The notes under the pieces were generated by a model. That model had not been told where the DNA came from. It worked only from the letters and a program-made list of their open reading frames with translations, and did no database searches. From positions 2,976,001 through 3,040,000 of the forward strand of contig OZ243961.1 in assembly GCA_965214605.1 (NCBI GenBank): DNA of 64,000 nucleotides, in the 5' to 3' direction. The stretch comes from an uncultured Candidatus Binatia bacterium. GTDB lineage: Bacteria; Desulfobacterota; Binatia; Bin18. Below are positions 2,283 to 47,906 of the stretch, piece by piece. The position numbers and the translations under genes are program-made. Position 1 is the stretch's first letter, and each line of letters opens with the position of its first letter.

Positions 2283-2358
2283 GAAAACTGTCAACCCTAG
2301 AAGAGGACGGCTGGGAGCGTTGGGCGTCAGAGGCCGTGGTCCTGGGAAATGCGCGAGA

Positions 2359-9086: not shown

Positions 9087-9926
9087 CTAGGTACGGGCTT
9101 GACCGTGTTTCGGCCCCTCTTCTTTGTCCTCTGACTGCGTGTCGCTTGCTGGGGGTTCCAAGGGCTGTAACCTCCAGCCGCGCGTGGCATACCAGCGGAT
9201 CTGGTGCGCCAGACCCAGAAGAATACGAACGTCGCGGTCTTCCAGCCCCGCCCGTCCGAGCATGCGTCGGAGCGCCAACATGATGTGGTCTGGGTTATCG
9301 CGGTGCAGGAACCCAACTGTGAGGAGTGCCTGCTGCAACTTGTCGTACATGAACTCTTGACGTTCTGCAAGCGCAAGTTCACGTCCTGTTGCGCGGCTGG
9401 GCTCAGCTCGATCGGCGGGGGGGCTCTTGGCTACGGCGTCCTGGCTGGCCAGAAAGATTTCATAGCAACAGACGAGTACGGCCTGGGCGACGTTGAGCGA
9501 GCGAAAGTGGGCTGCGGTTGGGATGGTTACTAGGCCGTGGCAGTAGCGTAGGTCGGTGTTGGTCAGGCCCGTATCCTCGGGACCAAACACCAGGGCGCTG
9601 CGATTCAGGTCCAAAGTGGACACAAACTCGGCCGCCAGACTGCGTGGCGAGCGGCTCTCCTCACGGTAGAGCCCTGGGCGACAGGTGGTGCCGATAACCC
9701 GCCGACAATCGGCGCTGGCTTCGCGCAGGGACGGGTAGATACGCAGCCGGTCCAGCACGCCTTGGGCGTGGACCGCCATGGTGTCCGCCTCATGCCGGCA
9801 AAATGCGGTCGGCCCAACGAGACGTAGGTCCTGAACTCCAAAGTTGTCCATGGCGCGGGCCACCGCGCCAATATTGCCCGAATATTTCGGGCGAACGAGA
9901 ATGATGCACAGCCTGGTCAAGCTCAT
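9087..9926 (-). CDS. trmJ: SPOUT RNA methyltransferase, TrmJ/LasT family
   Basis: GNIGAVARAMDNFG, LVFGPEDTGL and SLNVAQAV motifs. Confidence 0.88.
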   Translation of the reverse strand: MSLTRLCIILVRPKYSGNIGAVARAMDNFGVQDLRLVGPTAFCRHEADTMAVHAQGVLDRLRIYPSLREASADCRRVIGTTCRPGLYREESRSPRSLAAEFVSTLDLNRSALVFGPEDTGLTNTDLRYCHGLVTIPTAAHFRSLNVAQAVLVCCYEIFLASQDAVAKSPPADRAEPSRATGRELALAERQEFMYDKLQQALLTVGFLHRDNPDHIMLALRRMLGRAGLEDRDVRILLGLAHQIRWYATRGWRLQPLEPPASDTQSEDKEEGPKHGQART

Positions 9927-10012
9927 AGGCGAGGTCTCACGCAAGCGGCGAGGCGGACAAAAAAGAGTCGTGCGGAAAACAGCGGGGCCTCTCTTCCGCT
10001 TGGAGCGGGTGG

Positions 10013-10330
10013 CTAGCGCTTTGCAGCCGCTGTCTGAGCCGCGCGTTCGGCTTTACGGCCCTGCTCAAACCAGCGCCTAATCGTTTTGCGTTCCAGGTAG
10101 CGACCCTTGTGGCGGCGGCGGTTTTCCCTGTGAACAATATCGGCCTCAAGCAGTTCTTCGAGATAGCGATGGAGGGGATACGTCGTGTCTCCTTCGCCCA
10201 TGTCCTGGAGCAGCTTACGGAGCCGCTCAAGCCACTCGCCGTCAAGCTGGAGTTCAACACGCAGCGGGCGTCCGATGGCAAGTACTCTGGAGCGAATCGG
10301 CTTCTGCACGGATTTAGTACTCTGTTTCAC
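10013..10330 (-). CDS. Basic hypothetical protein
   Basis: 105 aa ORF, same strand as and upstream of trmJ. Confidence 0.55.
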   Translation of the reverse strand: MKQSTKSVQKPIRSRVLAIGRPLRVELQLDGEWLERLRKLLQDMGEGDTTYPLHRYLEELLEADIVHRENRRRHKGRYLERKTIRRWFEQGRKAERAAQTAAAKR

Positions 10331-31267: not shown

Positions 31268-31326
31268 CGCCCTCTTCTCTGCCGACGATGGGGGAGAAGC
31301 CCGTGTCCTCCCTCCGTGCTGATCCC

Positions 31327-32190
31327 TTACTGCACAAAGGCGTCCCGTCCACGGCTATAGGCAAAGATATTCTGGGCCGAGTTCCGGTTCACGAGTTCCC
31401 GGCCATACATCGGGTGATACAGGCTGCGGACCTCGTGCTCGAGTTCGCACAAGAGTTTGCCCGTCTTGGGACTCACAATAGCCTGAAATCGGTACTGATA
31501 GTCGTTGGATTCCTCGCTGATCAGCTTTTGGCGCTTTAAGAAAGCGTGGGGGCCCGAAAAATCGGCCACATAGATGGCAATATGATGCCCGTCGTACTCG
31601 GGCAGGGGCTCGGCGGTTTCCCGGAAGCGTAAAACCTGGGAGCAACCCATAGCGACCTCGGTCACTGTGCCCCGGCCGTCTTTGACCACTGTCGCCGGGG
31701 CGCGCATGACCGTGCGGTAGAAGACTGCAATGCCTCGGGCAGTTTTGGGTTTAACGAGTACCTCCACGTAAGGCATGCCGAGGCTCATGTCCCCAAACCG
31801 CGGGTCAGGAGCGTGACAGCGGATCTGATTTCCCCACGGGCAGCTCACCTCAACGTAGTCTTCTTGGGCCGTCCAGCTAAAGGCCGTTCCGGCTAATTTG
31901 TCTTCAAGCCTTGTGAGCCGCCGTTGCAGGGCGTCGAGGTCGGAGACAACTAGACCGATGCAGCCGGTCAGGACCTGGGGGTCGCGGGTGGGTAGATGAA
32001 ACTGTTGAGCGCCAACATTGACCCACATGTTTTCCGGCCCAACCATCATATACGGATCACGGGTCAGGCCGAGTCCTGAGACGTAGAAGCGGAGGGCCAT
32101 CTCTTGGTCGGGAATCGTCACATTGACGTGTTCCATGCCGAGGATGTTGCCGACGTCTTGCGTCTTGCGGTCGTATTTGGGCTGAGCCAT
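31327..32190 (-). CDS. VOC-like (glyoxalase fold) protein
   Basis: MEHVNVTIPD, QFHLP and YDGHHIAIYV motifs; AAAGGAGG RBS. Confidence 0.75.
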   Translation of the reverse strand: MAQPKYDRKTQDVGNILGMEHVNVTIPDQEMALRFYVSGLGLTRDPYMMVGPENMWVNVGAQQFHLPTRDPQVLTGCIGLVVSDLDALQRRLTRLEDKLAGTAFSWTAQEDYVEVSCPWGNQIRCHAPDPRFGDMSLGMPYVEVLVKPKTARGIAVFYRTVMRAPATVVKDGRGTVTEVAMGCSQVLRFRETAEPLPEYDGHHIAIYVADFSGPHAFLKRQKLISEESNDYQYRFQAIVSPKTGKLLCELEHEVRSLYHPMYGRELVNRNSAQNIFAYSRGRDAFVQ

Positions 32191-32318
32191 GTTTTGCCTC
32201 CTTTGCTCAGACTCTTTAGCGCTGATTATTTCCTTGCCCGCGTTCTTTTGCAAGCTTGGCGGCACGATGGTAGACTGACCCGGATTGAAGCGCCCATGGA
32301 AAAGAGGAGGATGCCCCC

Positions 32319-33515
32319 ATGTCGGCACTCGACCATATTCGTATTCTCGATTTGACCCACTACGAAGCCGGGCCGGCCTGTACCGAACTGTTGGCCTTTT
32401 TAGGGGCGGATGTCATTAAGCTTGAGCCGCCGGGCAAGGGGGAGCCGGGCCGCAGCTTCGTGCGCGATAAGCCGGATGTGGACTCCTATCTTTTTGTGCT
32501 GCTGAACGCCAGCAAACGCAGCGTCACCCTTGATCTCAAATCCGAGCAGGGCAAAGACTTGTTCCGTGCCCTCGTCAAGCAGGTCGACGTTGTGATCGAA
32601 AATTTTTCGCTGGGTACCATGGAGGAGTTGGGGCTTGGCTACCAGAGCCTGCGCGAGATCAATCCCTGCCTCGTCTACGCGACGATTAAGGGCTATGGCA
32701 CCTACGGTCCGTGGAGTAGTTATAAGAGCTTTAACTCTGCCGCCCTGGCAACCGGCGGCGCGATCAGCATCACCGGCTTGCCGGACGGACCGCCGATCAA
32801 ACCCGGTCCGACCATTGCTGACACCGGAACCGGCCTCCACTGCGCGGTGGGCATTTTGTCAGCCTTACTGCAGCGCAACAAAACCGGCCGTGGGCAACAC
32901 GTTGAAGTGGCCATGCAAGACGCCATGGTCAACTACGGACGGGTTCCCATGCGACACCATCTCCAGACCGGGGCGGTCGTGCAGCGCAGCGGCAACCGTC
33001 TGAGCCATGCCGCACCGACCGATACCTATGCCTGTCATCCTGGCGGGCCTAACGACTACATCTACCTTATGGCCACTACTTCGGCCATGTGGGACGCCCT
33101 GCTGCGGGTTATTGAGCGGGAAGATCTGATTGACGATCCGCGCTATACCGGCCGGGCCGAACGCAACGCGCGCTTTGACGAAGTGTACGAGTTTATCAGC
33201 GCCTGGACCCGGCAGCACGACAAGTTCACAGTCATGCACAAAATGGGCGAGGTCGGTATTCCGTGTGGCGCCGTATTTGATTCCCGGGATATCCTCAGTG
33301 ACCCTCACCTGCGCGAACGCGGCATGGTAGCAACGATTGAGCACCCGACGCGGGGCGAGATCACCATGCCGACCTGCGCCGTCCAACTAGACGACTCGCC
33401 GCTTAACCTCAAACCCGCCCCACTCTTGGGGGAGCACAACGGCGAAGTGTATCATGATCTGCTGGGCCTGAGTGCCGAAGCGGTCAAGGAGCTGGAGGTG
33501 GAAGGGGTCATCTGA
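32319..33515 (+). CDS. Class III CoA-transferase (CaiB/BaiF, formyl-CoA transferase-like)
   Basis: ILDLTHYEAGP, LGADVIKLE, NASKRSVTLDLK and ENF motifs; catalytic Asp in TIADTGTG. Confidence 0.93.
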   Translation: MSALDHIRILDLTHYEAGPACTELLAFLGADVIKLEPPGKGEPGRSFVRDKPDVDSYLFVLLNASKRSVTLDLKSEQGKDLFRALVKQVDVVIENFSLGTMEELGLGYQSLREINPCLVYATIKGYGTYGPWSSYKSFNSAALATGGAISITGLPDGPPIKPGPTIADTGTGLHCAVGILSALLQRNKTGRGQHVEVAMQDAMVNYGRVPMRHHLQTGAVVQRSGNRLSHAAPTDTYACHPGGPNDYIYLMATTSAMWDALLRVIEREDLIDDPRYTGRAERNARFDEVYEFISAWTRQHDKFTVMHKMGEVGIPCGAVFDSRDILSDPHLRERGMVATIEHPTRGEITMPTCAVQLDDSPLNLKPAPLLGEHNGEVYHDLLGLSAEAVKELEVEGVI

Positions 33516-33516
33516 G

Positions 33517-33895
33517 TGTCCTGCCTGTCTGGAGAATAGTGATTATCTCTCGCACTGTGAGTTTGAGCAGTGCCATGAGCGTCGGATATTAAGAGGGCCG
33601 AGTTAATAGAGGAGTGGGCTCTGTAAGCCTGCCGGTCCGGACCGAGACGCAGGGGGACCCCCACGCCCACACCATAACTTGGCTCGGCGTATACCATGGC
33701 GCCACAACCTCCGGTGTTCATCTCGCCGACAACGTCCCCCTATGCCTTGACCTCGACGACGAACCGTGGCCGGATGCTCTGATCCGAACCGGACAAGGGC
33801 GGCCATTCTTTAGTTGCCGCGGACGATGACAGTGAAGGCGCGCCCGAACTGATTGTTGAAATTGCCGCTGGCAGCGCAGGCTACGACCTGGACGA
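33517..33895 (+). pseudogene. Uma2 (DUF820) family endonuclease relic
   Basis: Stitched LENSDYLSHCEFEQ..IKRAELIE..PVR..GDPHAHTITWLGVY..LDLDDEPWPDAL..EGAPELIVEIAAGSAGYDL; frameshifted and truncated. Confidence 0.8.
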
Positions 33896-34123
33896 CTCTG
33901 GTCAAGGGGTTGGAGTGTCCTGCTCGTGTCCGCCCTGTTTGCCCCGGCGGCGGCTGGCAATCGCCCAGAGGGGTTCGTCGATATCCCTGTTTTCCCTGGA
34001 CGCCTTTTTGGGGGATTCTACGGCTACTTCCTGTGGTGGGAGCGTCTCTTTCGCCGGCGGTACGCCTAGGTGCAGGGGCAATCGGTGGCGGTGATTGATT
34101 GCTCTATGGACACTCTTCCGTTC

Positions 34124-34160
34124 AAGACGGGCGGCCGACGTGGCGGGCAGCCGTCTTTTC
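34124..34160 (+). terminator. Candidate intrinsic terminator
   Basis: AAGACGG...CCGTCTT inverted repeat followed by T-rich sequence. Confidence 0.4.
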
Positions 34161-34249
34161 TGTGCCTCTCTCCCTGTTTCCCGGTGCGGTCCTCGGGATG
34201 AGGCTGATGGTGATTTTGCCGAGTTCGGAATTCGCTAGGGGAAAAGCCC

Positions 34250-34713
34250 GTGAGCCGGAGAGTATTTTATAGTTTTCACTGTAAACCCGATAACAGGCAT
34301 ACGGCGTAGGTGCGCAATATCGGTGGGATTGAGGGCAATAGCCCCGCTACGGATAATGAATGGGAAACCGTCAAGAGGGGCGGCGATCAAACGCTGGATT
34401 GATAAGGAAATGAAAGGCCGGTCGTGCTGGGTCGTGTTGAGCGGGGCTCACACCGCTAAGTGGATCAACTCCAAGATTCGCAAGGCGTGGGAGGACGGCA
34501 CGGGCGTTGCAGGGATTAATATCCACAGTTTGGAAGATGAGAACGGGAAAGCTTCTTCAATTTTAATCAGGATGGAATCCGTTCGATTTGCTCCCATCAC
34601 TGTCTGCAATCATGCCACGTTATAACCCGCCCTCCCGGACCGGCCAAGACCGGTATACCTGGATCGTAAAGAACTCAGCGGATGTCGTCGAAGAGGTGAT
34701 TCAGATAGGCTAG
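34250..34713 (+). pseudogene. TIR-domain protein relic (MTH538/DUF1863, Thoeris ThsB-like)
   Basis: VSRRVFYSFHCKPDN..*VRNIGGIEGNSPATDNEWETVKRG / AAIKRWIDKEMKGRSCWVVL.G..TAKWINSKIRKAWEDGTGVAGINIH; internal stop and frameshifts. Confidence 0.85.
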
Positions 34714-34999
34714 GATGCCCAATAAAAAGTGGCCGAGCACCGTGGCCGGGTCTCTGAGCCATGTTTGACACAATGCACGGGTATCAGCCAGACAAATGGC
34801 TTGTCGAAAAAGCAGGAAGGGCCATCAGCATAAGCCGGACCGCTGGAAGCACGATGTTACGCAGTCGATAGACATGGACGAGGCTTGGCGCATAGGCTTT
34901 GCGCCGGAGGTCTACCGGACCACGCTGGCCCCGGCCACCTAGGTGGCCGGGGCCACGTTGACGGCGACAAAGGAGCTACGGGACATCGGCCGCACCACG

Positions 35000-35394
35000 C
35001 TGATGGACGATCGCGGTGATTGACACCCCTCTTTCGTATATGTACCTGAAAGAGCACCGGGCACTCCAGCGTCACCTCTCGAAGGCCTTTCAGCCAAGTC
35101 CCGGTGAAACGGTACGAGTCGCAGGACTACCGCCGAAACTGCCTATTCTTCCCCGAGCGCAACGTGACCATGTCGGCCCTAACCGAGGCGACCATCATCG
35201 TGAAAGCGGAAGAGACGTCGGGCACCCTGATTCGGGCACGTGCGGCTCTGCAACAAAGGCGCAAGCTCTTCATCCTCGACAACTGTTTCCACAATCCACA
35301 GCTTAACTAGCCGGCCCGGTTTGCCGAGCAGGGTGCCATCCGGATCAAGGACTACGATGACCTCCGAACGCATCTTTCCCACAGCGCCTCACTG
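35000..35394 (+). pseudogene. DprA/Smf (SLOG) family C-terminal relic
   Basis: TIAVIDTPLS..KEHRALQ..SQVPVKRY..FFPERNVTMSALTEATIIVKAEETSGTLIRARAALQQRRKLFIL; stop at 35308-35310. Confidence 0.85.
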
Positions 35395-36015
35395 AGGTCG
35401 ACGAGCTGATACGGCCAGATCATTCTGCTGACCGAAGCCGACGCCTGCTACTTCATCGGCGAGTACACGGCACGTATGCCCATAGCGCTACCAACGACGT
35501 GATCTCGAATTCCAAGAAGGAGATGAATCGGCGCGGGCTGCCGGAGCGGCAGTATAAAGAACAAGCGATTCAAACCGTCGCAGACGTCCTTCGGAAAGCC
35601 CTCAATCCGGATGCTCTCCACCGTCTGACCTTCGCGCCAATTCCGCCCTCGAAGGCACGGAACGATCCGCTCTATGACAGCCGTCTCACCTGGATGCTTC
35701 ATGCTATTCGCCCCAAGCCGACTCGGGACACTCGCGGACTCATTACTCAGACAGCAAGCACGGAGTCTGTTCATCCCCAAGGCCATTCCTGAACAGTTTG
35801 AGGCAATGTATCGAATTGACCAAGCATTGGTGGAACCAGCGCCCGATTACATCGCCGTGGTCGACGACATGTTGACGGCAGGGGCGCATTGCCGAGCGGC
35901 AAAATCAATTCTTTCGGCTCGTTTTCCGAAGGCAGTCATTGTAGGGCTCTTCATCGCCCGGTGGGTGCCGGCTAGGGACGAATTCGGCGAGCACGACAAC
36001 TGTGCCGAATATTGA
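35376..36015 (+). pseudogene. Phosphoribosyltransferase (PRTase)-domain relic
   Basis: RLTEVDELIRPDH, PIPPSKARNDPLYDSRL and PRPP loop IAVVDDMLTAGAH; two or more frameshifts; overlaps the DprA relic. Confidence 0.82.
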
Positions 36016-36412
36016 GGAGTCTGTGCCTCCTTCCGGAGTCAGGGAGGGGGCGTCGGAGGAGTTAATATAGGCAATTCGTGTCCCCTCAAGCAGGTCGGGA
36101 TCCTGCGCACGATGACCGTGAGCACTGCAGGTGTTCAGGGCTTGCGGGTTGACCTAGAGACAACGACTCCGCTCCGAAAAGGGGCGTGCCATAAGGGGTA
36201 CGGTATTGGCAAATATTAAGGAACACCATCATCCGCAATGGAATGGCTGGCTCAAGGCCGCATTTGAATAGAATGGGGCGCTGCCGATCACCGAGCGTGA
36301 CATTGAGGCCCAAGTGCCAAGAGGGCAGGGAGCGAAAACAAGGCAGGAGGCCGCCGTCATTTGGCCGAGGAACGGAATATGGTTCGCCACGGCCGCGTCT
36401 TGGAGGAGCGTG

Positions 36413-37874
36413 GAATCGGACCGAACTCGAACAGCTAGGTCCGCAGTGTCGCTACGTCGTCACAAAAACCTTGTACGAACGGGGCTTTCCGGTCTGGTTG
36501 CACGAGCAATCGGCGCCTAGGCTGAACAAATGGATAGCGCGCGCGGCGCCCCGTGCCGGGAGCATTAACGACGACCGGACCGGTGGCAGGGTGGCCAACC
36601 AACTTCATCTCGGCCCGCAGGAGGGAATCGCTGACTTCATCGACCGCCTGTCTGCGGCAAGACCAACCGAAATACGTGTCCAGCGTAGCTACAACAGCGA
36701 CGCGGACTAGGCGAGAAAGCGGGCGAAATCCCCGGACAACCTGCTGTGCGACGTGGTGGGGCAGGCGTTTGATACGTACTTGAAGGATGAAAAGTGGGCA
36801 TGGGTGGCAAAGGAGCTGGGGGACGTCCTCCCGAAGACGGGAACGGAGCAGTCTGAACGAGGCGAAGGAACTGAGGAATGCCTTCCCGGAGACGGAACGC
36901 GGGGAGGGGACGCGCCCGGCAGCGGCGCCTGCCGGAGCAGGATACAGAAGACTGGGAAGCCGTTCTGTACTTCCTGCTCCATCTCGTGCCTGTTGATGCG
37001 GTCAGCCGTTTGAAGCATCAGCTGCGCAAATGGTCCATCCTGGAAAAGAAGGCGTCACCGGAGGCAGAAGAACAGCGGTCACCGGAGGTCACCGCCATTG
37101 GACGACTACTTAGTCTCTATCTCGACATGCACGACGCCAAGTTCGAGGGCAGTGAAGGTGTGGCTACAGCCGAAGAACTCAAGGAACTGTTCCAATCCGA
37201 AGACGCCTTTGCCCGAGCATGTCCCGGACAGCTGGGGGCCAGGACGCTGGCCACTACGTGCCCTGGCGCGGGCTGTGGGAGATTTTGCGTTTCGGCAGTC
37301 TGAAGCCGTTGATGCCGATTTTCAGGCAGCATCGCATTACAGACGAGGATGTGAAGAAGCTGACCAAGACGGAAACGCCCGAGAATGGCAAGGCCTCCTC
37401 CTCCCGCATCGCCAGAGACCAGGAGAAGCGCGAAGCGCTGCACGACCAATAGGTGAAAAAGAAAAAAAGTTTTCCCAGGAGGACAAGACCGCTTATTGCG
37501 AGGCGCTGGCCGAGGTGGTCGCGCATCGGCATTTGGCCGCCCATGTTCGCCTCAACAATCACGCCCGTTTGCATAGCCTGCTGATGGGAGTGCTTGGGCA
37601 GTTGGTTGATTATGCTGGGCTGTGGGAGCGTGATCTGTGTTTTTCGACGCTGGCGCTCATCTCACTGCAAAAGAAGAGGCCTCAGGACAATTTCTTCATC
37701 GGAGAAGAGCGCGAGGCTCTGGGCAACGGCCGGATCGTTGATGCCCTGAAAAAATTAAAGAAGAGAGGCGATAAAGGGGACGCCTCTGTACAGGCGATTT
37801 TCTGTCAATTGAAGCGCCTGTTCGGCGCTAATTTTCTCGACAGTAAAAAAGGTCTGGTCAGCATTCGCAACGAT
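36413..37874 (+). pseudogene. cas13a: Type VI-A CRISPR effector Cas13a fragment (central region to start of HEPN2)
   Basis: Colinear motifs resemble Rhodobacter capsulatus-type Cas13a as I recall it: LYERGF..WL, TEIRVQRSYNSD, WEAVLYFLLHLVPVDAVSRLKHQLRKW, LYLDMHDAKFEG, RGLWEILRFG, VRLNNHARLHSLLMGVLGQLVDYAGLWERD, ending at IRND; 2 nonsense codons and at least 3 frameshifts. Confidence 0.88.
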
Positions 37875-38072
37875 TCTTCTTTCCTGAGACGTCAGAGAAG
37901 AGGAAGACAAAGCGGACATGTCCGGAAAAGGGGACGAAAAAACTGGAGAAATGAGAGAGGCGCCCTTCGGGAGAAGACGCTCCCCTGATCCACAGAGGAG
38001 GGCCGATACGGGACGACAACACAACTGTCCCGCGCATTTGCTCAGCCTTACCTAACATGCTAGCACGAAACC

Positions 38073-38354
38073 ATGGGTCGAGCAAAACAACGACAGCAAC
38101 GCATCCAGCACCTCGAAGAGCAAGCTGCACGGATACAAGCCGAAACGCGCCGCCTCAAAGCCCTCGTCAGTCAGGAAGAGCGGGAGCGGGAGACGCGGCG
38201 AAAAATTCTCGTTGGCTCTATGGTCCTCGCCCTCGTCGAGCGCGGCGAATGGCCCGAACAACGCTTCAAAACCACCCGTGCTCGGGCCCTGTTTGAACCG
38301 CCGCCTCAAACGGCGCCGCCCGTTACCGCTCCAGAGAGGACAATAGATGACTGA
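38073..38354 (+). CDS. Plasmid mobilisation accessory protein (RSF1010 MobC/TraD-like)
   Basis: Coiled coil followed by RETRRKILVGSMVLALVERGEWPE. Confidence 0.7.
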   Translation: MGRAKQRQQRIQHLEEQAARIQAETRRLKALVSQEERERETRRKILVGSMVLALVERGEWPEQRFKTTRARALFEPPPQTAPPVTAPERTIDD

Positions 38355-38712
38355 ATACGAAATCGCAGCCTTAGCACTGGCTGAGAGCCGAGTGGGGATT
38401 ATGCAGGGCCAACTCGCCGTCGCGCAGGCTCAAGTCTGGGTCACCGCCGGGCTTGGCCTCCTGCAGTGCCTGTTGATTGCGGGCGGTTTATGGCTGATGT
38501 GGGGTGGGAGCAAGCAGCGGGATCAGCAGCTGGCGCAGCAGGCCGGGCAGTTCGCCGAACTGATCCGCCGCGGCGAACGCCAGGGCAAGGCGCTTGAACG
38601 TCAAGGCGAGGCGCTCGAACGTCAAGGCGAGGCGCTCGAACGCCAAGGCGAAGTCTTAGCCGAGCTGTTGCGCCGGACCACTCCGAAAACCCGGGAAGAG
38701 AAAGCAAAATGA
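38347..38712 (+). CDS. Single-TM coiled-coil hypothetical protein
   Basis: 121 aa; AGAGGA RBS; one TM helix; ERQGEAL heptad repeats. Confidence 0.65.
   Translation: MTEYEIAALALAESRVGIMQGQLAVAQAQVWVTAGLGLLQCLLIAGGLWLMWGGSKQRDQQLAQQAGQFAELIRRGERQGKALERQGEALERQGEALERQGEVLAELLRRTTPKTREEKAK
38575..38658 (+). repeat. Four tandem ~21-nt coding repeats (GAACGTCAAGGCGAGGCGCTC)
   Basis: Directly visible; encodes ERQG(K/E)AL repeats. Confidence 0.9.
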
Positions 38713-38773
38713 GCGTGGAAAAAACCGCCAGTCAGACGCCAGGCCGAAGCGGAGGCAAGGAAGGCCCATCCGC

Positions 38774-39030
38774 ATGAGCGCGCTGGCCTTTGACGCTCAT
38801 AAAGCGTCCTGGCCCTCAGGTAGGCGGGCTTCGCCGAGCCGCAAGCTAAGGCCGTAGTCATCAACCACCATGGGCGAAGCCCTTGACGACAACGTCGCCA
38901 CCAAGGCCGCTCTCACCGAGTTCCGCGCCGTCCTCGAAGCCGAGATGGTCCAGGGGTTCAAAGCGCTCTACAAACCCGTGTGGGCCATGGCCGCTGGCAT
39001 CGTGTCACCCTGGTCAAGCTCATTCAATAG
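38774..39030 (+). pseudogene. DUF1640/CCDC90-like relic, inverted paralogue of 39494-39865
   Basis: ATGAGCGCGCTGGCCTTTGAC start identical to the intact copy; shared MGEALDDNVATKA; stop and frameshifts. Confidence 0.8.
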
Positions 39031-39246
39031 CGAGCACGGCCGGAAGGCCCTGTTATCTGGTGAGGGATTTCGGAGTGGGTTGGATCGAGATCGGGCCGTG
39101 ACGGTCCAATCGGCATGCCGTAGGGGACTGCGCCCCTACGGCACCGAAATATACGACCTCTTATTAGAGATACCCCTCCAATAAAGGGGGGATTACCCCC
39201 CGACCTGCAAGTCTGGAAACTGTGAGGCGCGGAACTATGTAGGCGG

Positions 39247-39470
39247 GTGGCGCGGCCGGCCTACCTGCACCAGCTCAGTGACAGCAGGATGAAGCAGCTC
39301 AAGCATTTCAAGCAGAATTTGCTCCTAGCGATCCGGGGTCTGGAAACGGCAGGCGTGATCAAGTCGTTTGAGTTCCGGGACGACCTGGTCCACGTCCGGA
39401 CTGTGCCGAGCCAGAGCCAGCAGTGCCACTTGATCGCGTGCCAGCCACCTCAGCTCGGCGGCGGAAATAG
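39247..39470 (+). pseudogene. TrfA-family plasmid replication initiator, C-terminal fragment
   Basis: LHQLSDSRMKQLKHFKQNL...LETAGVIKSFEFRDDLVHV resembles the C-terminus of TrfA-type Rep proteins. Confidence 0.6.
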
Positions 39471-39493
39471 GCCCGGCATTGAGGGACGCTGTC

Positions 39494-39865
39494 CTAAGAG
39501 ATAAGCTTGAGCAGCGTGACGGTCAGGCCGACGATGCCGACAGCCATGAGCCAGAGCTGTTTGTAGAGCGCTTTGAACTCCTGGGCCATCTCGGTCCGCA
39601 CAGCCGCGATGTCAGCTCCGAGGTCGGCCTTCAGGGCGCCCATCTCGGTCCGCACAGCCGCGATGTCAGCTCCGAGGTCGGCCTTCAGAACGGCCATCTT
39701 GGCTTCGAGAGCGGCGCGGGTCTCGGTGAGGTCGGCCTTGGTGGCGACGTTGTCGTCAAGGGCTTCGCCCATGGTGTTGACCACGGCCTCGGCTTGGCCC
39801 TCCGCGAAGCCGGCCTGTTTGAGGGCGATGACGGCTTTATGGGTGTCAAAGGCCAGCGCGCTCAT
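39494..39865 (-). CDS. DUF1640/CCDC90-like coiled-coil protein with C-terminal TM helix
   Basis: AFDTHKAVIALKQAGFAEGQAEAVV, VATKADL, C-terminal hydrophobic helix; AAAGGAG RBS. Confidence 0.85.
   Translation of the reverse strand: MSALAFDTHKAVIALKQAGFAEGQAEAVVNTMGEALDDNVATKADLTETRAALEAKMAVLKADLGADIAAVRTEMGALKADLGADIAAVRTEMAQEFKALYKQLWLMAVGIVGLTVTLLKLIS
39586..39688. repeat. Tandem duplication with 54-nt period inside the DUF1640 gene
   Basis: CCATCTCGGTCCGCACAGCCGCGATGTCAGCTCCGAGGTCGGCCTTCAG occurs at 39586 and 39640. Confidence 0.9.
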
Positions 39866-39891
39866 GGCTGGGGGACTCCTTTCTCGCGATC

Positions 39892-40129
39892 CTAGCGGAG
39901 CGGGAGTTCAAACAGTGCCCGATCCCTGTCGCATTTCAGGGCGGCCTTGAGCCGTTCTTCGGGCCACTCGCCGCGCTCGACCATTCCCAGGATCATCGCC
40001 CCAACTAAAATCTTGCCTTGCGGTGTGTCGTGCTTGTGCTCCTACTGACTGGCGAGCGCCTTGAGGTAGTGTATCTTGGTTTGTCTCCGCCCGGCTTACT
40101 CGTCAAGCTACTGGATCCGCTGCCGCCAC
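39892..40129 (-). pseudogene. Second, degenerate MobC-like gene (inverted paralogue of 38073-38354)
   Basis: RQRIQ*LDE*A..LKALASQ*E..KILVGAMILGMVERGEWPEERLKAA..RALFELP; several stops. Confidence 0.75.
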
Positions 40130-40261
40130 CTCCTAGCACGGTGCGGGGGGGTGAGCAAGAGCGGATGAGGCATCAGTCATCGCACCCTGGTGGGCTCTGC
40201 TCTTCCTCCCTCAGTATGGAGTGAGGTGTTTTGTCGGAAAAAGGTTGATGAGGGTTTTTGG

Positions 40262-40407
40262 AAACCTTAGCATAGATGATCGGGTTGATGGTCGGGATAT
40301 GGGAGGTGGTATATCGCTCCAAGGTGGTAGCCAACCAGTCCGCCCAGTGTGGGTCGTCCTCAAAGATATCCAGCAGGATATTGGGAGTCCACGAGCAGAG
40401 AGAGCAT
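40262..40407 (-). pseudogene. PIN-domain (VapC) toxin relic
   Basis: LLVDS/NILLDIFEDDPHWADW...INPIIYAKVS; frameshifted and truncated. Confidence 0.75.
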
Positions 40408-40630
40408 GCCTCGCCCTGGGTCAACGCGAGGATCTTGTCGGCGGTCATCTTGACGTGGCGGCACCCCGGAACTTGTAAAAACGCTCTCCGGGCTTCGTCT
40501 GCCCGCTCTTCCTTACGATATACACCTGCTCGCTGTCCTCAATAAAATCCACTTCGCTGTAAGGCGTGATGCCGAGTTTTTCCCAAATCGGCAGCGGGAT
40601 GGCAACTTCCCCGTTCACGGCAACCTTCAT
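40404..40630 (-). pseudogene. AbrB/MazE-type antitoxin relic
   Basis: MKVAVNGEVAIPLPIWEKLGITPYSEVDF...FRGAAT/MTADKILALT; frameshift near 40447. Confidence 0.75.
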
Positions 40631-40689
40631 ACATACCAACTCCTCTCCTGCCACAGGGTATTACTCACCCTTGTCAGTACGACGGAGCA

Positions 40690-40990
40690 GGCCCGTCGAC
40701 CAGGGCCTGCACGAGGTGCGTCCCATCGCCAAGGAGATTCCAATTGAATAGCAGACCAAAGCCGTTTTCCGTGTCGCCGCCCGCCGCAGCAGAGTGCCTT
40801 CTTGGGGGGACCGTCGTTAAAGACGATCTCAATGCGCTCAGCGTTGCACGCCTAGCCGGAGATGAGACCGATGCCGCTCTGGAAAGCATCGCATGAGGCC
40901 CGGTCTTCTCCAGGGCAGCTCGAGCCCAGACGTGGGAGGCAGCACAGAGGAGCAGCAGACATAGGACAGTGGTCGTGGGCAGCCGCAAGC
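40690..40990 (-). pseudogene. Relic of a secreted protein carrying an SFQSGIG...NGFGLLFNWNLLGDG domain
   Basis: AFQSGIGLISG*ACNAERIEI..GDTENGFGLLFNWNLLGDGTHLVQALVDG; paralogous to 41705-42090. Confidence 0.65.
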
Positions 40991-41704
40991 GAGACGGCGG
41001 CGTGATCTGAGTGCATGAGCCCTTCCAGGGGAGAAGAGGCAGATAGGCGCGGCCGCGCCTTAAGGGTGCACCACATAAGCCGCTTATCTCCGTGCTGCTA
41101 GGTGGGGTGCCAAAGGGACGCAGTAGGCTGAAGCCGAGCCTTGTCCAGGAAGACGGATATCGGCGGCCTCTTCTTCAACTTGCTGCGGGTAACATCGAAG
41201 AGGCTGCTCTCCGCGAGTTTTACGATATCCCCTTCCGGTAATGCGAAGAAGGCCAATTTGTGCCTACCCCCGAGCATCACAAAGAGACCGGGCGGAAAAC
41301 TCTGAATGCTGTTGTCGGAAGCTCGTGCAGGAGCAGCTGTATACCACCACAGCGCTCCTGGTTTCGCCAGCACAGCGGTAAAGACGGGCGCGGATGCGGC
41401 AAGAGTCTGAGAGGGAGCACGATGGCGGCGTTCCCTCTACCGCCCTCTTCCCGCTCTTATCTTCTTCGAATCAGGGGGATTCCAATACGGCTCCAGAGGG
41501 CAAGGGAGATGCAGAAACCTTGCTGAAATGGGCCTTCACGGCCTCCGCGCTTGTGTTCAGCGTCGCCAGATACGCCCCCACCCCGCCCAGATCACCCGGT
41601 TGCTCGGCCGGCGGTCGTACCGCTTCCCAACAGGGTATGGCCCACTTCTCCGGGGTGGTTCATTCTGGCGGGGGACGGAAGAGGCGATGCGGTGGTTCCG
41701 ATCA

Positions 41705-44265
41705 TCAGGGAATAATCACGAAGTTCTGGAGGGCCTCTTCCCATGCAAGCGTGGTGGCCTCCCCTGGGCGGGGGAAGTCCGGGACGTTCACCGTCCGGCG
41801 CACTCCCCGCAGGAAGGTCTCCCCAAGCGTCGTTATCCGCACCGTGGTCCGGGCAAACTCCACCCCATCGGCCAGCGCCCGCACCGAATACGTGCCAGGG
41901 CCCAACTCGTTCCAGTTCAGCAGCAGGCTGAAGTTGGTGTGGCTAGCACCGCAAACCCTCCGGGTGTCTCCCCGGGGTGTGCCATAGGCCGCCTGCACCG
42001 GGAGGCCTCCCAGTTCCACGACGATATCCCACCCCGAGAGGAGCCCAATCCCGCTCTGGAACGATCCTAGGGACGGGTTTTCCAGACGAGCGTGGGGCGG
42101 CGGGACAACATTCTGAGGAGAAGACGGCCACGTCATCGATATACCAACCATCTGCCGTCTGAGCCGTGGCGGACCATAGAACAAAAACGAGGCGTATGCG
42201 TTCCCCAACGACATGACTTAAGTCAACAGCAGTCTATGTCCAGGTGGGCTGAGTACCGAGGATGGTTCTGAGATGTTCCTCCGCCCACCAGCTTCCACCC
42301 TTACGTTGCCGTGCAACCCACACGCTGCCCTCATCGTCACGGGCAAAGCCGTACCGATGCCAGAAGGTCAGGGTGGCGACATTGACCCCGGTCAGGTCGA
42401 TGACTAGAGACACAAGATGAACGGCCTGATCAGGCGGATGATTCCCACGCGGGCTGTCCGTCCAGGCTCATCTCCCACTTCGGGCGGACGCCGTGCTTAA
42501 CGCCCAGGGCCGCTCCCCCGACCACCACCCACGGGGGCCGCTCTCCATATCATCGGCAAACAACACCTCATCAGCTCCGGCCTGTGTCCCCGTCCACCCT
42601 CCGATGGTGGGGGCCAGTCCGAGCGGAAGAACGGGAATTCCTCTGCACCGTATAGCTGACGCTCCCCGCACTACGGCCGCTGGCTCTTGACGTGACGCGA
42701 AGCCACGCCGGGTGGCTCACGGTCGCCCACTCGCAATCCCTCCCGCCTCGCCCTGGACGCGGGCGCGGTCAGGACTCGGGCCGAGGAAATCGGCGGACGC
42801 AGACAGAAAAGCGATCCCACTCCTGCACGTGGTCCGGGCGGCGCGAATAGTCACCCGGTAGCCGCTGGCGGTGGCGGCGACGATGGAGAGCTGGACGGCG
42901 TTTTCCGAGTCCCTCAAGCTCTCGCCTTGCGTCTACGTCGCCCCGTCATCGTTCGGGTCGCCATTGTTGTCCACGTCAACGACTTGGGCCTGCCGGTCGG
43001 CCAACCTCGTGTCTACTTTATGGAGGAGAATCCCTTCCTCGGGGATGGCCTCATCGTAGCCGGCAAACAGACGGGCCTCGACTGTGTAGAAGTCAGGCGG
43101 CGCCTCCCCAATCGGGATCTCGGCCATCAGGTAGTCCGCCGCCCCGGGCTGGGCCAGGCGTTCGAGCGTGAGGGGCGTGTTGGGCAAGGCGACATACTGC
43201 CGGTCCGCCGGAAGCCAATCCAGAAAGTCTGTGTGGTAGGCGATGGTGTGTAATGCTACGCTACCATACTCGGGATGAGGCAATGTCAATGCCCCGCTTC
43301 CCATGACATCCCACTGAGAGTCGTACGTCTCCTCATACAGACCCGAAGAATGCAGCAAGCCCAAAGCGTGGCCTATCTCGTGCGCCCAGACATCCTGATG
43401 ATGAGCGTTTGGAGGTATCCATCCATGTCACGCCCTAGAATCTCGTGAGCCCATCCGACGTCATGAAGCAGGAGTCTCCAAAGCCGAAGTTCACAAGAGG
43501 GGGATCAAAATCCCGGTTAAAACCCAGCAAAATCAGGGAAGAAGACATCTGCATCTGCGGCGGCCGCGCAATCTGTGGCTATTTTGTTGATATCATAATC
43601 ATAGTAGCCTTCGTCTCTCTCTAGGGGAGCAAGGTGAGAAGTAGCGTCGTACAATTGTGGCTGGGGCAGGTCGTACCAGCCCACCACGAGGCTACCACTC
43701 CAGTCGACGAGCCCGGCGGAGACCTCTCGCCAATAATGGACCAGGATAGGCCGTCCCCATCAGCCGCTCATCATGGCTGACCAGATGCGGGGTGATATCT
43801 GTCGCATCCGCAAAACGGCACAGAAGGGCCCCCCACGCCTGGAAACCAGTCACGCCGCCCGGAGAGACGAGGCCGCTGGGAGGGGCTCCGCCCGGAGACG
43901 ATTCACGGGCCAAGCGCCTGCTCGGTAAGGCCGTCGCCGGTGCGAGAGAGTTGACGCGCAAGCGCGGAGGACCGGCAGGCTCTAGCTCCGCCCACCGTGA
44001 CCCGTTGGCGGTTCACAGCCACCGGGCCGCCGAGTGGCTGCAGGAGGGCCACGTCAAGGAACAGTTCGCGCTTCTCGCCCGAGTCTTCGGTCAGGACGTT
44101 AGGTCATGGCAGAGGGGTGGCCGGATTCAGACGGACAATCCGTAACAATTATGCTGACCTAGCCGCTGAGGAACTGCTGCTGGGCGGGCGGAGCGGAGAG
44201 CCGCCCCGTGCTCAGCAGGAACAGGACCACCTCGCTCTTCTCTTTTCGCCAAACCAGCCCCGCAT
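41705..44265 (-). pseudogene. Large secreted zinc metalloprotease (M6/InhA-like) relic with C-terminal SFQSGIG domain
   Basis: AAGGAGAGG RBS before ATG 44265; LCRFAD; WAHEIGHALGLLHS (HExxH) near 43350-43390; YDSQWDVMG; LENPSLGSFQSGIGLLSGW; many frameshifts. Confidence 0.75.
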
Positions 44266-44939
44266 CTTTTCCTCTCCTTATTTGCAAAGCGCAGGAGGGA
44301 CAATGCTGCCCTCGCTTGGCTTTTAGCCCCTCTCTCCCCGCCAGTCCACTCCTCCTTGCTGTGGCCGCCGCCCCCGGCGGGGGCGGACGGGCTTGGGGGT
44401 GGGCCGCATCTACCTCCTTTTCCCGTGCGGGGGAGCAGCGACGGCTGAGCCGCCGGGCGGGCGGCTCTGGACCAGAGACAGCGGGCTTGAGACACGAATC
44501 CCTGCTGGGTAAAAGAGGTTCATTGGAAATGCTCTTTCAGGGAAGGCTGCGGCCAACCCTCAGGACTCCGACAGCTCGACTCTATGACTGATCGTCTTAT
44601 CGCTTACGGCATCCCGTGACGGTACGGGAGCCCTCGACTGGTGGTAGGCCCTCCAGAACTCCGTGCCAGCCCTGCTCTGGTAGTGCGGTCTGAGACTGTA
44701 AGTGGCTGGGGCGGAGAGCTGGAGTGGGTGGGCGGCTCCGTTTTCTCTTTGGAGATACCAGGGCGGCGTTGGTGCCCCCTGTCCGACCAAACGGGGGAGC
44801 TGTGAGATCCCCAACCAAGCTCCCGCAGCGGGGGGCAATCAGCGTGTAGCGGGTCAGCGGCCTCGTTCTGACGGGCGTGTTGCTTTGATTCGCTCGCGGA
44901 GCTCTTCAACCACGACTCGTAAACTTTCCAGGGATATCT

Positions 44940-45236
44940 CTACTCTTTCTGGTCGGCCAGGGCATCCATTTTCTCAGCCAGCTCAAAGTCAAGCTGACTG
45001 ATGCCGCCTACATCGTGGGTAGCCAGATCGACTCTGACGGTGTTGTAGACGTTGAACCATTCGGGGTGATGGTTCATGGCTTCGGCGACCAGAGCAACGC
45101 TGGCCATAAAGCCGAAAGCCCCGACAAAATCTTGAAACTTGTACTCACGGTGGAGCTTGCCCTCAATCACCGCCCAGCCGGGACGATCCGCCAGGGCAGT
45201 TTGAATCTCGGTGTCTGAAAGTCTGCGTCGTGCCAT
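44940..45236 (-). CDS. phhB: Pterin-4-alpha-carbinolamine dehydratase
   Basis: AEAMNHHPEWFNVYN and THDVGGISQLD motifs. Confidence 0.95.
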   Translation of the reverse strand: MARRRLSDTEIQTALADRPGWAVIEGKLHREYKFQDFVGAFGFMASVALVAEAMNHHPEWFNVYNTVRVDLATHDVGGISQLDFELAEKMDALADQKE

Positions 45237-45333
45237 AACTGCCTCCTTTTGGGTATCGGGACTCTAACCTGACATAATCTTGACAGCCAGACAATAAGAG
45301 TGCCAGACTAGACAGTTGGAAAAGGAGGGGAAC

Positions 45334-46425
45334 ATGGCCCAAGCAGTCTCCCTACAGTCCCCGCGCCTTGAAGCCCAGCAGGACGACCTGATCGAAGACT
45401 TATTTGCCCGGGGTGTGACCGACGGACTGCCGGTCGTGCCGCCGACCGAAGAGCGGGTAGACGCCATGCTCAGCACGGTGGAGCGCGGGTCCCAAGAGAT
45501 ACTCGGAATGGTCGGACCCAACTACGGTCCGGCGACCCTAGAAAAAGTCGCGATTAACGCGGTCATGGCCGGCTGCCATTCGAGTTACTTCCCGGTGGTC
45601 GTGGCCGCGGTGGAGGCCATGTGCGAGGAACAGTTTGCCCTACACGCCATTAATGTAACGACCTTCTCGGCCACCCCGCTGACGATTATTAACGGCCCGA
45701 TCCGCCGTCAGATCGGGGTCAACTGCGGCCATAACGCCCTCGGCCACGGCTTTCGGGCCAACGCCACAATTGGCCGGGCGATTCGTCTGATTATTCTGAA
45801 TATCGGCGGCGCCAAGCCGCAGGAGATCTGTAAAGCGACCCTCGGTCATCCCGCCCAGTTCACATTCTGTGTGGGCGAAGACGAAGAGGAGAGCCCCTGG
45901 GAGCCACTGCACGTTGAGCGCGGCTTTCGGCCTGACCAGAGTACTGTCACCCTATTTGGTGGCCACTCACCATTTCAGATCAGTGACCACGCCAGCCGGA
46001 CGGCCGAGCAACTCGCCCTGTCCCTAGGCTGGACGATGACCTCGGTCTGGAATCATAAAAACTTTCCGGTCTTTTCCGATACAGCGCTCATCCTGGGACC
46101 GGAGCACGCTAAGACCTTTGCCCAAGACGGCTGGTCAAAGAACGATATTCGGCAGTTTCTCTTTGACAAGATTCGGCGTCCGTACCGAGAACTCCGAGCT
46201 GGTGTCAACGGGGGAGAGGGGGCTGGCGTCAGCATGCTCAGAGGGGTCAATGCCAGCACCGAACCACCGACCGACGACACCCTCTACCCCAAGTTTCCCA
46301 AGCCCGAGAGCATTCTCATCCTTGTCGCCGGTGGCACGGCCGGCCGTTTTTCCGCGGCCGTGCCCGGCCTCGTTCGCGGCAGCTCGGGCAGCACCATCAC
46401 CACAAAAGAAATTCAGCCCGCATAA
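45334..46425 (+). CDS. Conserved protein normally partnered with UGSC-family (seleno)proteins
   Basis: TDGLPVVPPTEERV, EKVAINAVMAGC, RANATIGRA and ESPWEPLHVERGF motifs; AAGGAGG RBS. Confidence 0.85.
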   Translation: MAQAVSLQSPRLEAQQDDLIEDLFARGVTDGLPVVPPTEERVDAMLSTVERGSQEILGMVGPNYGPATLEKVAINAVMAGCHSSYFPVVVAAVEAMCEEQFALHAINVTTFSATPLTIINGPIRRQIGVNCGHNALGHGFRANATIGRAIRLIILNIGGAKPQEICKATLGHPAQFTFCVGEDEEESPWEPLHVERGFRPDQSTVTLFGGHSPFQISDHASRTAEQLALSLGWTMTSVWNHKNFPVFSDTALILGPEHAKTFAQDGWSKNDIRQFLFDKIRRPYRELRAGVNGGEGAGVSMLRGVNASTEPPTDDTLYPKFPKPESILILVAGGTAGRFSAAVPGLVRGSSGSTITTKEIQPA

Positions 46426-46435
46426 GGAGGATCGT

Positions 46436-46978
46436 ATGACACGTTTACTAGACCCGACCTCTCAGGTCGAACGCAACGCCATAGAGCTTGCCCCGCGACT
46501 AGAGACCTTGGCCGGGACAACGATCGGCCTGCTCGATATTAACAAGGCCAAAGGCGAATTTTTCCTGGACCGTTTGGAAGAAGTCCTGCGCCAGCAGTAC
46601 GGGGTCAAGGAGGTCTTACGCCGCCGCAAAGTCACCCCGGGCCGAACCGTTCCGGTTGAGGTCAAACAGGAGTTGCAAGAGAGGTGCGACGCGGTCATTG
46701 AAGCCCTCAGCGATTGAGGAGCCTGCATTTCGTGCAGTTCGCACGATGTCGTGGGTTTTGAAGAAAACGGAATTCCGACCGCTAATGTTGCAACCACCGA
46801 GTTTCTGACCGCCGCCCACGCCCAGTGTTCCGCTCTGGGTCTCCCCCGGTACGAGCCAGTCCTGGTTCCCCATCCGATTCAGCCCAAGCTGCCCGAAGAG
46901 GTCCGTGCGCTCGTGGACGGGGTGGTTGACCAGATTGTGGCCAAGCTGCTGAGAGCCAAAGAGCGGCAGGCAGCGTAA
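46436..46978 (+). CDS. UGSC-family selenoprotein (in-frame TGA 46715-46717 = Sec; D-U-G-A-C-I-S-C)
   Basis: ORF-track pieces 46118-46717 and 46751-46978 are in the same frame, separated only by TGA; TAAGGAGG RBS; SECIS-like hairpin follows. Confidence 0.88.
46718..46759 (+). promoter_or_regulatory. Candidate bacterial SECIS element
   Basis: Stem (T)CGTGC/GCACG(A) with loop AGTTC (G at second position, followed by T) starting 19 nt after the UGA; lower stem GCAT/ATGT. Confidence 0.7.
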
Positions 46979-47000
46979 TACCGCCGTATAAGAGAGACCG

Positions 47001-47906
47001 GTGCCGACCATCATTGCCACTGACCTCGCCTTCCCCGAGGGGCCGGTGTGGACGGCCGACGGCAGTCTGTACATCACCGAGATCGGGGCCGGGCAGCTCC
47101 GCAAGATTGATGCAGACGGCCAATCATCCGTGTTTGCCAAACCGGGCGGTGGACCAAATGGGGCTGCACGCGGTCCGGACGGCGCCCTGTATGTGACCAA
47201 CAACGGCGGGTTCTCGTGGCACAACGGTCTACCGGTCGGACCGGCTGCGGACTATGAGACCGGTCGGATTGAACGGATTGATCAGACCGGCGCGGTCCAA
47301 CGGCTGTATACCGAGTGTGATGGGACGCGCCTGAGTGCCCCCAACGATCTGGTCTTTGACGCCGAGGGGAATTTCTACTTCACCGACCCGATCCAGCGCG
47401 ACCCTGCGGTCCGTGAGCCTCTCAACCGGCCGACCTCGCGGCCTGGACAGGTCTACTATGCCAGCCCCGACGGGAGCTTCATCCGTCGGGTGGCCGGCCC
47501 CCTCCAGCATCCAAACGGTATTGGCATCAGCCCGGACGGTACAACGCTCCTGGTTGCCGAGACCTTTGCCGCCGCGGTGTGCGCGTTTCCCATTCTCGGA
47601 CCCGGCCAGTTGGGCCAGCGGCGGCCGTTTGGCAGCCTGCCCCAGGGCTATCATCCGGACGGTTTTTGTCTGGATGAGGACGGCTATGCGTTGGTGTGTG
47701 GAGTGCTAGGCGGTGGCATTGTCGTCTTTGATCCAAACGGCAAACAGGCCGAGGTGCTGGCCTGTGAGGATAGAGCCGTCACCAACGTTGCGTTTGGCGG
47801 ACCCGAGTATACAACGCTCTACATTACCGAGTCCGGCCTGGGCCGAGTGGTGACACGACCCTGGCGACGGCGGGGACTCGTATTGTTCTCTGATCGAACG
47901 GCCTGA
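47001..47906 (+). CDS. SMP-30/gluconolactonase/LRE family protein
   Basis: FPEGPVW, PNDLVFD, PNGIGISPDG and PDGFCLD motifs. Confidence 0.92.
   Translation: MPTIIATDLAFPEGPVWTADGSLYITEIGAGQLRKIDADGQSSVFAKPGGGPNGAARGPDGALYVTNNGGFSWHNGLPVGPAADYETGRIERIDQTGAVQRLYTECDGTRLSAPNDLVFDAEGNFYFTDPIQRDPAVREPLNRPTSRPGQVYYASPDGSFIRRVAGPLQHPNGIGISPDGTTLLVAETFAAAVCAFPILGPGQLGQRRPFGSLPQGYHPDGFCLDEDGYALVCGVLGGGIVVFDPNGKQAEVLACEDRAVTNVAFGGPEYTTLYITESGLGRVVTRPWRRRGLVLFSDRTA

Follow-up and report, generated by a model that had tools for sequence, protein, structure and literature searches.

The closest described system is that of Rhodobacter capsulatus, whose Cas13a-crRNA complex has been solved (PDB 7OS0; Commun Biol 2022, PMC8776769). 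As presented in that account, the protein (RcCas13a) has a catalytic tetrad formed by R464/H469 and R1052/H1057, and mutation of any of these residues leaves no activity in E. coli. The same account locates R1085, N1089 and H1113, the residues for pre-crRNA processing, in HEPN2, after the HEPN2 histidine (PMC8776769). RcCas13a (7os0_A) is also the best solved-structure match of a broken gene described here, in a 64,000-nucleotide stretch of DNA from an uncultured Candidatus Binatia bacterium (hereafter the window, to which all positions refer unless another locus is named). Judging from sequence comparison, the plus strand of the window at 36414–37874 almost certainly carries a non-functional remnant, or pseudogene, of the type VI-A effector gene cas13a. 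Two of the four pieces into which the gene has fallen match the structure individually, piece 2 at residues 765–863 (E = 1.8e-7) and piece 4 at residues 961–1018 (E = 4e-10). An earlier note on this DNA, made from the letters alone, had likened its motifs to those of the R. capsulatus protein; the resemblance is real, and the alignment with 7os0_A displays HLRLHRLMMDVIGRLIDYAGAYERD.

Identity and anatomy of the cas13a remnant

The remnant encodes approximately 453 colinear Cas13a residues. They match positions 612–1090 of the 1192 positions of the NCBIfam model NF038188 (cas13A_C2c2) in a profile search, and residues 567–1029 of P0001, the intact 1176-residue Cas13a of a genome of the same genus (G006), in tblastn. 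The five ORFs from which the earlier note had stitched the gene together (36243–36710, 36753–37013, 36878–37303, 37219–37452 and 37098–37988) are all found in the window, including the motifs quoted for them. NF038188 is the sole NCBIfam model matched by four of these ORFs, and the order of the matches is colinear (Table 1). ORF 36753–37013 alone has no NCBIfam match; with read-through of the TAG, its first ~29 codons extend piece 1, so that the match covers NF038188 612–746. A frameshift-aware search by tblastn likewise returned four colinear Cas13a pieces. Chance similarity to Cas13a is excluded because of the E values and the colinearity of the pieces. The whole-protein cut-off of NF038188 is 150 bits, and every piece of the remnant lies below it (best 87.4 bits), with a simple sum of ~205 bits. 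No piece has a Cas13a match in Pfam-A, and PF28192 and PF28350, the precomputed families of the relatives, also gave no match there.

The lesions of the remnant comprise two TAG stops, three frameshifts and an abrupt cut at both ends. The TAG at 36708–36710, inside piece 1, is aligned with a proline of the relatives, and the TAG at 37450–37452, which terminates piece 3 in frame, is aligned with a tryptophan. At least three frameshifts had been claimed, and three were found by tblastn with P0001, the first of them on a poorly conserved loop (P0001 ~714–725). Between the lesions, piece 2 contains the motifs WEAVLYFLLHLVPVD...HQLRKW and DAKFEG, and piece 3 contains YVPWRGLWEILRFG. Similarity to Cas13a sets in abruptly at 36414 and breaks off just as abruptly after I-R-N-D at 37874, and the sequence beyond is unrelated.

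In the relatives, the IRND position is followed by L-A/M-H-F-N-M-L (RNDLAH or RNDLMH), and the 3′ cut has therefore removed the HEPN2 histidine; of the R-X4-H motif of HEPN2, the arginine is kept (37866–37868) but the histidine is gone. An alignment of 17 relatives shows that R458/H463 in HEPN1 and R1027/H1032 in HEPN2 (P0001 numbering) are invariant. Among these four catalytic residues the remnant retains only the equivalent of R1027, and the region equivalent to R458/H463 is absent altogether. The equivalents of P0001 residues 1–566 and 1030–1176 are missing, and with them the crRNA-recognition lobe (NTD and Helical-1) and the pre-crRNA processing site. Neither the first 566 nor the last 147 residues were found by profile search and tblastn anywhere in the genome (4.37 Mb, 99.99% complete). 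No other Cas13a pieces were found in that genome, the sole further tblastn rows having E values of 0.78 and 0.93. The surviving part begins late in Helical-2, takes in HEPN1-II and the linker and reaches as far as the catalytic arginine of HEPN2, and no uninterrupted reading frame runs through it.

The remnant also has no adjacent array with the 36-nt repeat of its clade. No CRISPR array was found in the window by TRF and repeat scans, for the 36-nt repeats of two related genomes (G006 and G035) the longest match anywhere in the window's genome does not exceed 14 nt, and a degenerate type VI-A repeat core has 0 matches there at up to 3 mismatches. Other CRISPR-Cas systems are present in this genome, with eight Cas1 matches (four near full length), none of which lies near the remnant. 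The remnant is derived from the Cas13a family and lacks every functional feature of it, and cas13a pseudogene fragment should be its proper annotation. In its essentials the first reading of the locus was correct in both observation and interpretation: a Cas13a gene, turned pseudogene, that is interrupted by the two TAG stops, limited to 36414–37874, broken within the HEPN2 R-X4-H motif and deprived of its N-terminal half.

Table 1. Features of the cas13a remnant and of the island around it (window coordinates)
Feature	Position	Strand, frame	Evidence or remarks
Genome-specific 10.9-kb island with remnant and other broken genes	33897..44809		Flanks conserved in congeners to 33896 and from 44810
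Thoeris ThsB TIR-like fragment, middle of profile only	34323..34625	+	PADLOC ThsB E 2.1e-19, profile 46-107 of 164; PF08937 E 3.7e-10
ShosA C-terminal fragment (DprA-like antitoxin of ShosTA)	35104..35310	+	PADLOC E 2.9e-19, profile 210-268 of 303; TIGR00732 dprA E 6.1e-11
ShosT (phosphoribosyltransferase-like toxin of ShosTA), two frames, 35499-35792 and 35674-36015	35499..36015	+	PADLOC 46-125 (E 1.2e-9) and 154-213 (E 2e-13) of 237
Cas13a piece 1	36414..36839	+, frame 3	P0001 567-713, tblastn 57.8% identity over 147 aa; NF038188 612-709 (E 6.7e-7), 612-746 with one TAG read through
Frameshift 1 zone, frame 3 to frame 2	36840..36931	+	Gap between tblastn pieces; exact indel not placeable
Cas13a piece 2	36932..37231 (tblastn to 37288)	+, frame 2	P0001 726-825, 63.9% identity; NF038188 773-872, E 9.9e-19
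Frameshift 2, frame 2 to frame 1	~37204-37240	+	
Cas13a piece 3	37237..37452 (tblastn 37204-37464)	+, frame 1	P0001 811-893, 56.3% identity; NF038188 886-940, E 1.6e-5
Frameshift 3, frame 1 to frame 3	37455-37469	+	A-rich (A5/A7) run
Cas13a piece 4 (linker and first part of HEPN2)	37458..37874	+, frame 3	P0001 895-1029, 59.0% identity, BLASTP E 2e-50; NF038188 944-1090, E 6.3e-25
Broken copy of multi-copy large secreted metalloprotease-like gene	41705..43850	-	66-72% DNA matches to many congener places; longest frame 169 aa

Lesions in other assemblies and the question of recoding

The window's genome is in 9 contigs, one of them of 4.31 Mb, which suggests long reads, and frameshift 3 falls in an A5/A7 run, a typical error site. 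Both observations would fit a gene that is intact in the organism and owes its stops and frameshifts to errors of long-read assembly. However, in four public runs, which come from three studies, the contigs carry the same letters over 35900–38400, without any indel and with no more than two substitutions (37396 T>C and 37572 C>T), and one run of a second study (X5) by itself spans 36340–38400 with all the lesions and both junctions. As far as contigs can tell, the lesions are not assembly errors, because the contigs of three other studies repeat the stretch without indels. Besides, two of the lesions are substitutions to TAG, and the complete loss of both ends of the protein also argues against such errors. 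The other long genes of the window are intact; since frames of up to 1120 residues are found elsewhere in it, the assembly is not generally frameshifted. These results largely refute assembly error as an explanation, and we regard it as exceedingly improbable. The earlier note had proposed to confirm the lesions with reads; they are reproduced in the Logan contigs of the four runs, one of which may be the source sample of the window. Because contigs can mask what raw reads would show, intact variants that are rare in the population may have escaped notice.

It is scarcely credible, too, that the remnant is still used, either as a gene recoded by TAG read-through and programmed frameshifts or as an exapted fragment, for example the 296-residue frame 37098–37988 or a regulatory RNA. 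The in-frame stops are indeed TAG in both cases, and the cas13a of G033, a family mate, is likewise interrupted by a single TAG, but TAG terminates 385 of the 1205 open frames of at least 400 codons in the genome. TAG is therefore an ordinary terminator here, and we reject TAG recoding on this stop-codon usage. Recoding would also require three frameshifts in different directions, and a HEPN pair would be impossible even with everything read through. No Rfam family was matched in 33000–45500, and the neighbors of the remnant are likewise fragments.

Relatives of the remnant

Among 61 related genomes, counting that of the window itself, five have a match to NF038188 at E ≤ 0.001, and in three of them the score exceeds the cut-off: G006 with 788 bits, G035 with 784 bits and G033 with 834 bits and one TAG inside the gene. 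A single-protein search of genome contigs confirmed no relative. The alignment of the 17 relatives, used against genome contigs, found 35 loci from Candidatus Binatia, Nitrospirales, many Alphaproteobacteria (Rhodovulum, Thalassospira, Parvibaculum and Thalassobaculaceae), Spirochaetaceae and others. The clade is large: 336 proteins were found at E ≤ 1e-5 among 8000 scored candidates, and they are named Cas13a wherever their sources give a name. The best identity of an intact relative is 67% over piece 4 (among 121 matches in a large protein collection) and ~60% over the whole remnant (among 120 proteins), and no closer one was found in these searches.

The earlier note had also suggested a tree of the stitched protein. 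A quick maximum-likelihood tree (LG+G4) was constructed from 34 rows, namely 33 Cas13a proteins and the remnant with X at the breaks, over 445 columns within the span of the remnant. It omits L044, L045, L046 and one half each of the split L018 and L042, as well as L005 and L007, which are duplicates of L018 and L032. The remnant is placed inside an 11-row Binatia/Nitrospirales clade (plus one Gammaproteobacteria row) with an SH-aLRT support of 98, and this clade is nested among alphaproteobacterial sequences. Its nearest relative is P0001 of G006, with 64.1% amino acid identity over 437 columns, and its identity to the Nitrospirales proteins is 61–62%. The host was suspected from the start not to be alphaproteobacterial, and indeed it belongs to Candidatus Binatia: its family mates G033 and G035 have Cas13a loci with blast results identical to those of two of the Binatia loci.

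Intact, array-bearing relatives had been anticipated in sister genomes, and they exist. In G006, the array beside cas13a comprises at least 29 repeats, each 36 nt long and spaced at 66 nt (one at 65), and 29 exact repeat cores were counted in it. In G035, nine exact repeat cores are located by cas13a, in groups of three and six, with ~66-nt spacing. The accompanying suggestion that such relatives could form an uncharacterised subclade holds only in the biochemical sense, since the NCBI Cas13a model already recognises the clade (780–834 bits). Beside the G006 gene, none of five frames tested matched a Cas family. One 1164-residue frame directly upstream of it (L009 13705–17199, minus strand) has no NCBIfam match at E ≤ 1e-5. 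None of the sister cas13a loci shows synteny with the window in tblastx beyond the gene itself.

Broken cas13a genes are present in four of the eight loci assigned to Binatia, six of which were assigned by record title and two, G006 and the window's genome (G000), by kinship; a fifth remnant is found in G002. At L045 (3851–4673; Binatia), cas13a has been reduced to residues 1–45, 233–413 and 944–973. At L042 (Binatia), one frameshift separates 894 from 366 residues, and at L018 (identical with L005; G033, Binatia), one TAG splits the gene into 355 and 829 residues. Such single lesions in long-read MAGs (G033/L018 and L042) may be assembly errors. The G002 remnant, a second Cas13a fossil in the genus, retains residues 1–69 only (L012, G002:C1:4095500-4115400, 9816–10034, minus strand; 59% identity to P0001, E = 3e-21), and its locus is not syntenic with the window. 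In the literature searched, we found no publication that describes Cas13a from Binatia, and none on fossil Cas13a genes.

A lineage-specific island of decayed genes

We compared the surroundings of the remnant with the seven other genomes of the genus by a DNA search with 31300–47900. Both flanks were found in all seven at 76–85% identity (83–85% up to 33896 and from 44810), whereas the stretch between them is absent from all seven. The flanks are separated by 84 bp in G005, by 45 bp in G002, and by 0.9–2.6 kb in G003, G004, G006 and G007. On these genome comparisons, the 10.9-kb island either was gained by this lineage alone or has been retained by it alone. The site is bounded by a CoA-transferase gene, which ends at 33515, and a pterin dehydratase gene (44940–45236), and no frame of at least 150 residues occurs between these two genes, with the exception of remnant-derived and overlapping frames. 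In G004, the same site (L058, G004:C4:955500-958500, 688–2533) contains an HSDR_N-like gene and a Uma2-family putative restriction endonuclease gene; with different cargo there, the site behaves as a variable hotspot. The GC content of the remnant (0.579) equals that of the genome (0.584), and its composition therefore offers no hint that it is of recent foreign origin.

Decay in the island has affected at least three defence systems together. Besides the broken cas13a, there is a ThsB without its full TIR-like domain, the fragment covering only 46–107 of the 164 profile positions, and no intact pair of ShosT and ShosA remains, ShosA being reduced and ShosT split. A second ShosTA is found in the same genome (L048, G000:C1:877000-883000, 1927–3519), in which ShosA is intact (300 residues, 306 bits). 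ShosT is also split there (2756–3280 and 3217–3519), near the same profile position (~140–155 of 237) and with a different frame offset. It may be that the copies at L048 and in the window are both pseudogenes, or that such a split is characteristic of this ShosT lineage.

The remaining content of the island is varied. The broken metalloprotease-like gene at 41705–43850 is not a transposase; its intact 1187-residue homologue in G004 has InhA-like MAM, BACON and M10 matches. Window positions 38096–39003 and 39531–40123 are inverted, diverged copies (70–92% identity) of one small module, which contains a CCDC90-like/DUF1640-type coiled-coil gene (39494–39865 on the minus strand, with the plus-strand copy at 38870–39184). 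Beside the inverted modules is a membrane protein with ALERQGE repeats (38347–38712), which has paralogues elsewhere in the genome. The region 40173–40654 (minus strand) contains a small AbrB-family gene (40445–40654; TIGR01439 E = 7.8e-5, below the cut-off) and, overlapping it, a 91-residue frame (40173–40448) with no family match; the two may be a toxin-antitoxin pair. A resemblance of 38073–38354 to TraD finds no support from Pfam, PADLOC or NCBIfam. No tRNA is found in the window.

Proposed history of the locus

The ancestral gene encoded a crRNA-guided protein of ~1180 residues. By analogy with RcCas13a, for which this has been shown rather than for the present gene, pairing with a target RNA would have brought the two HEPN domains together to cut target and bystander RNA. 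We infer that a defence island with cas13a (probably together with its array), ShosTA and a Thoeris component entered a variable site between housekeeping genes in this lineage. Deletion or replacement has removed the crRNA-binding N-terminal half with HEPN1, and likewise the HEPN2 histidine, the pre-crRNA processing residues and the C-terminus, and the remaining 1.46 kb has accumulated two stops and three frameshifts. The island as a whole appears to be no longer selected, or selected against, and to be decaying by deletions and point lesions. The death of cas13a may have come before or after its arrival, and the cuts at its ends may go back to a single event or to more than one. Possible reasons for the decay are the cost of a collateral RNase, self-targeting or simple disuse.

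Horizontal arrival, which the earlier note thought probable, is supported, short of proof, by the absence of the 10.9-kb island from all seven congeners. Alternatively, cas13a could have been ancestral to the genus at this site and lost elsewhere, rather than having arrived with an island. Cas13a or its remains occur in three of the eight genomes of the genus (intact in G006, the remnant in the window's genome and residues 1–69 in G002), the remnant groups with Binatia sequences in the tree, and its GC content matches that of the genome. However, the three loci are not syntenic, and where the island is missing the flanks lie only 45–84 bp apart in two congeners and enclose different cargo of 1–2.6 kb in the others. 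Moreover, the remnant is no closer to the G006 protein (64%) than to the Nitrospirales proteins (61–62%). We consider ancestral presence with loss elsewhere to be unlikely, and it is less parsimonious than a single gain.

Significance of the remnant

As a single locus, the remnant is of little weight. It cannot act, being the dead copy of an effector that is well known, and as a pseudogene it is ordinary; the family is a known one, and its intact members are already caught by standard models. Its value lies in annotation and in pointing to type VI-A systems of alphaproteobacterial character that circulate in Candidatus Binatia and Nitrospirales, of which the intact, array-bearing copies in sister genomes are open to testing. 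It also provides a documented case of several defence systems decaying in one island, which bears on the turnover of costly defence genes. It is possible, if rather doubtful, that the Binatia/Nitrospirales branch represents a distinct and biochemically unstudied type VI-A sub-lineage, in phyla not previously linked with Cas13a, that has been gained and destroyed unusually often. If this is true, the pattern would suggest that collateral-RNase immunity carries a strong cost in these slow-growing bacteria, and fossils of this kind would be a record of past RNA-targeting defence.

Comparison with known Cas13a systems

RcCas13a (7os0_A) is the best structure match not only of the remnant but also of the intact P0001 (E = 5.6e-98). 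RcCas13a and the remnant belong to the same alphaproteobacterial-type radiation in the tree, in which Rhodovulum stands in for Rhodobacter, and the order of their motifs is the same. The divergence is large, with 36% identity between the remnant and the Rhodovulum Cas13a. RcCas13a, as described in PMC8776769, is intact and active, whereas the remnant has the equivalent of R1052 only. Measured by the residues given in that description, the remnant has lost its crRNA-recognition lobe and every processing residue, and of the four catalytic residues all but one. The Leptotrichia-type Cas13a structures (for example 5xwp, 5xwy and 9mvs) are of the same family, and piece 4 matches them at E = 4.9e-7, but they are much more distant than RcCas13a, and P0001 aligns with them in the HEPN2 region only (E ~1e-20).

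Closer at hand, the cas13a genes of L018/G033, L042, L045 and G002 share with the remnant both their clade and their kind of decay, although their loci are independent, bear different lesions and in no case show synteny with the window. The G006 gene for P0001 resembles the remnant with 73–74% DNA identity; unlike the remnant, it is intact, adjoined by an array and situated at another, non-syntenic locus.
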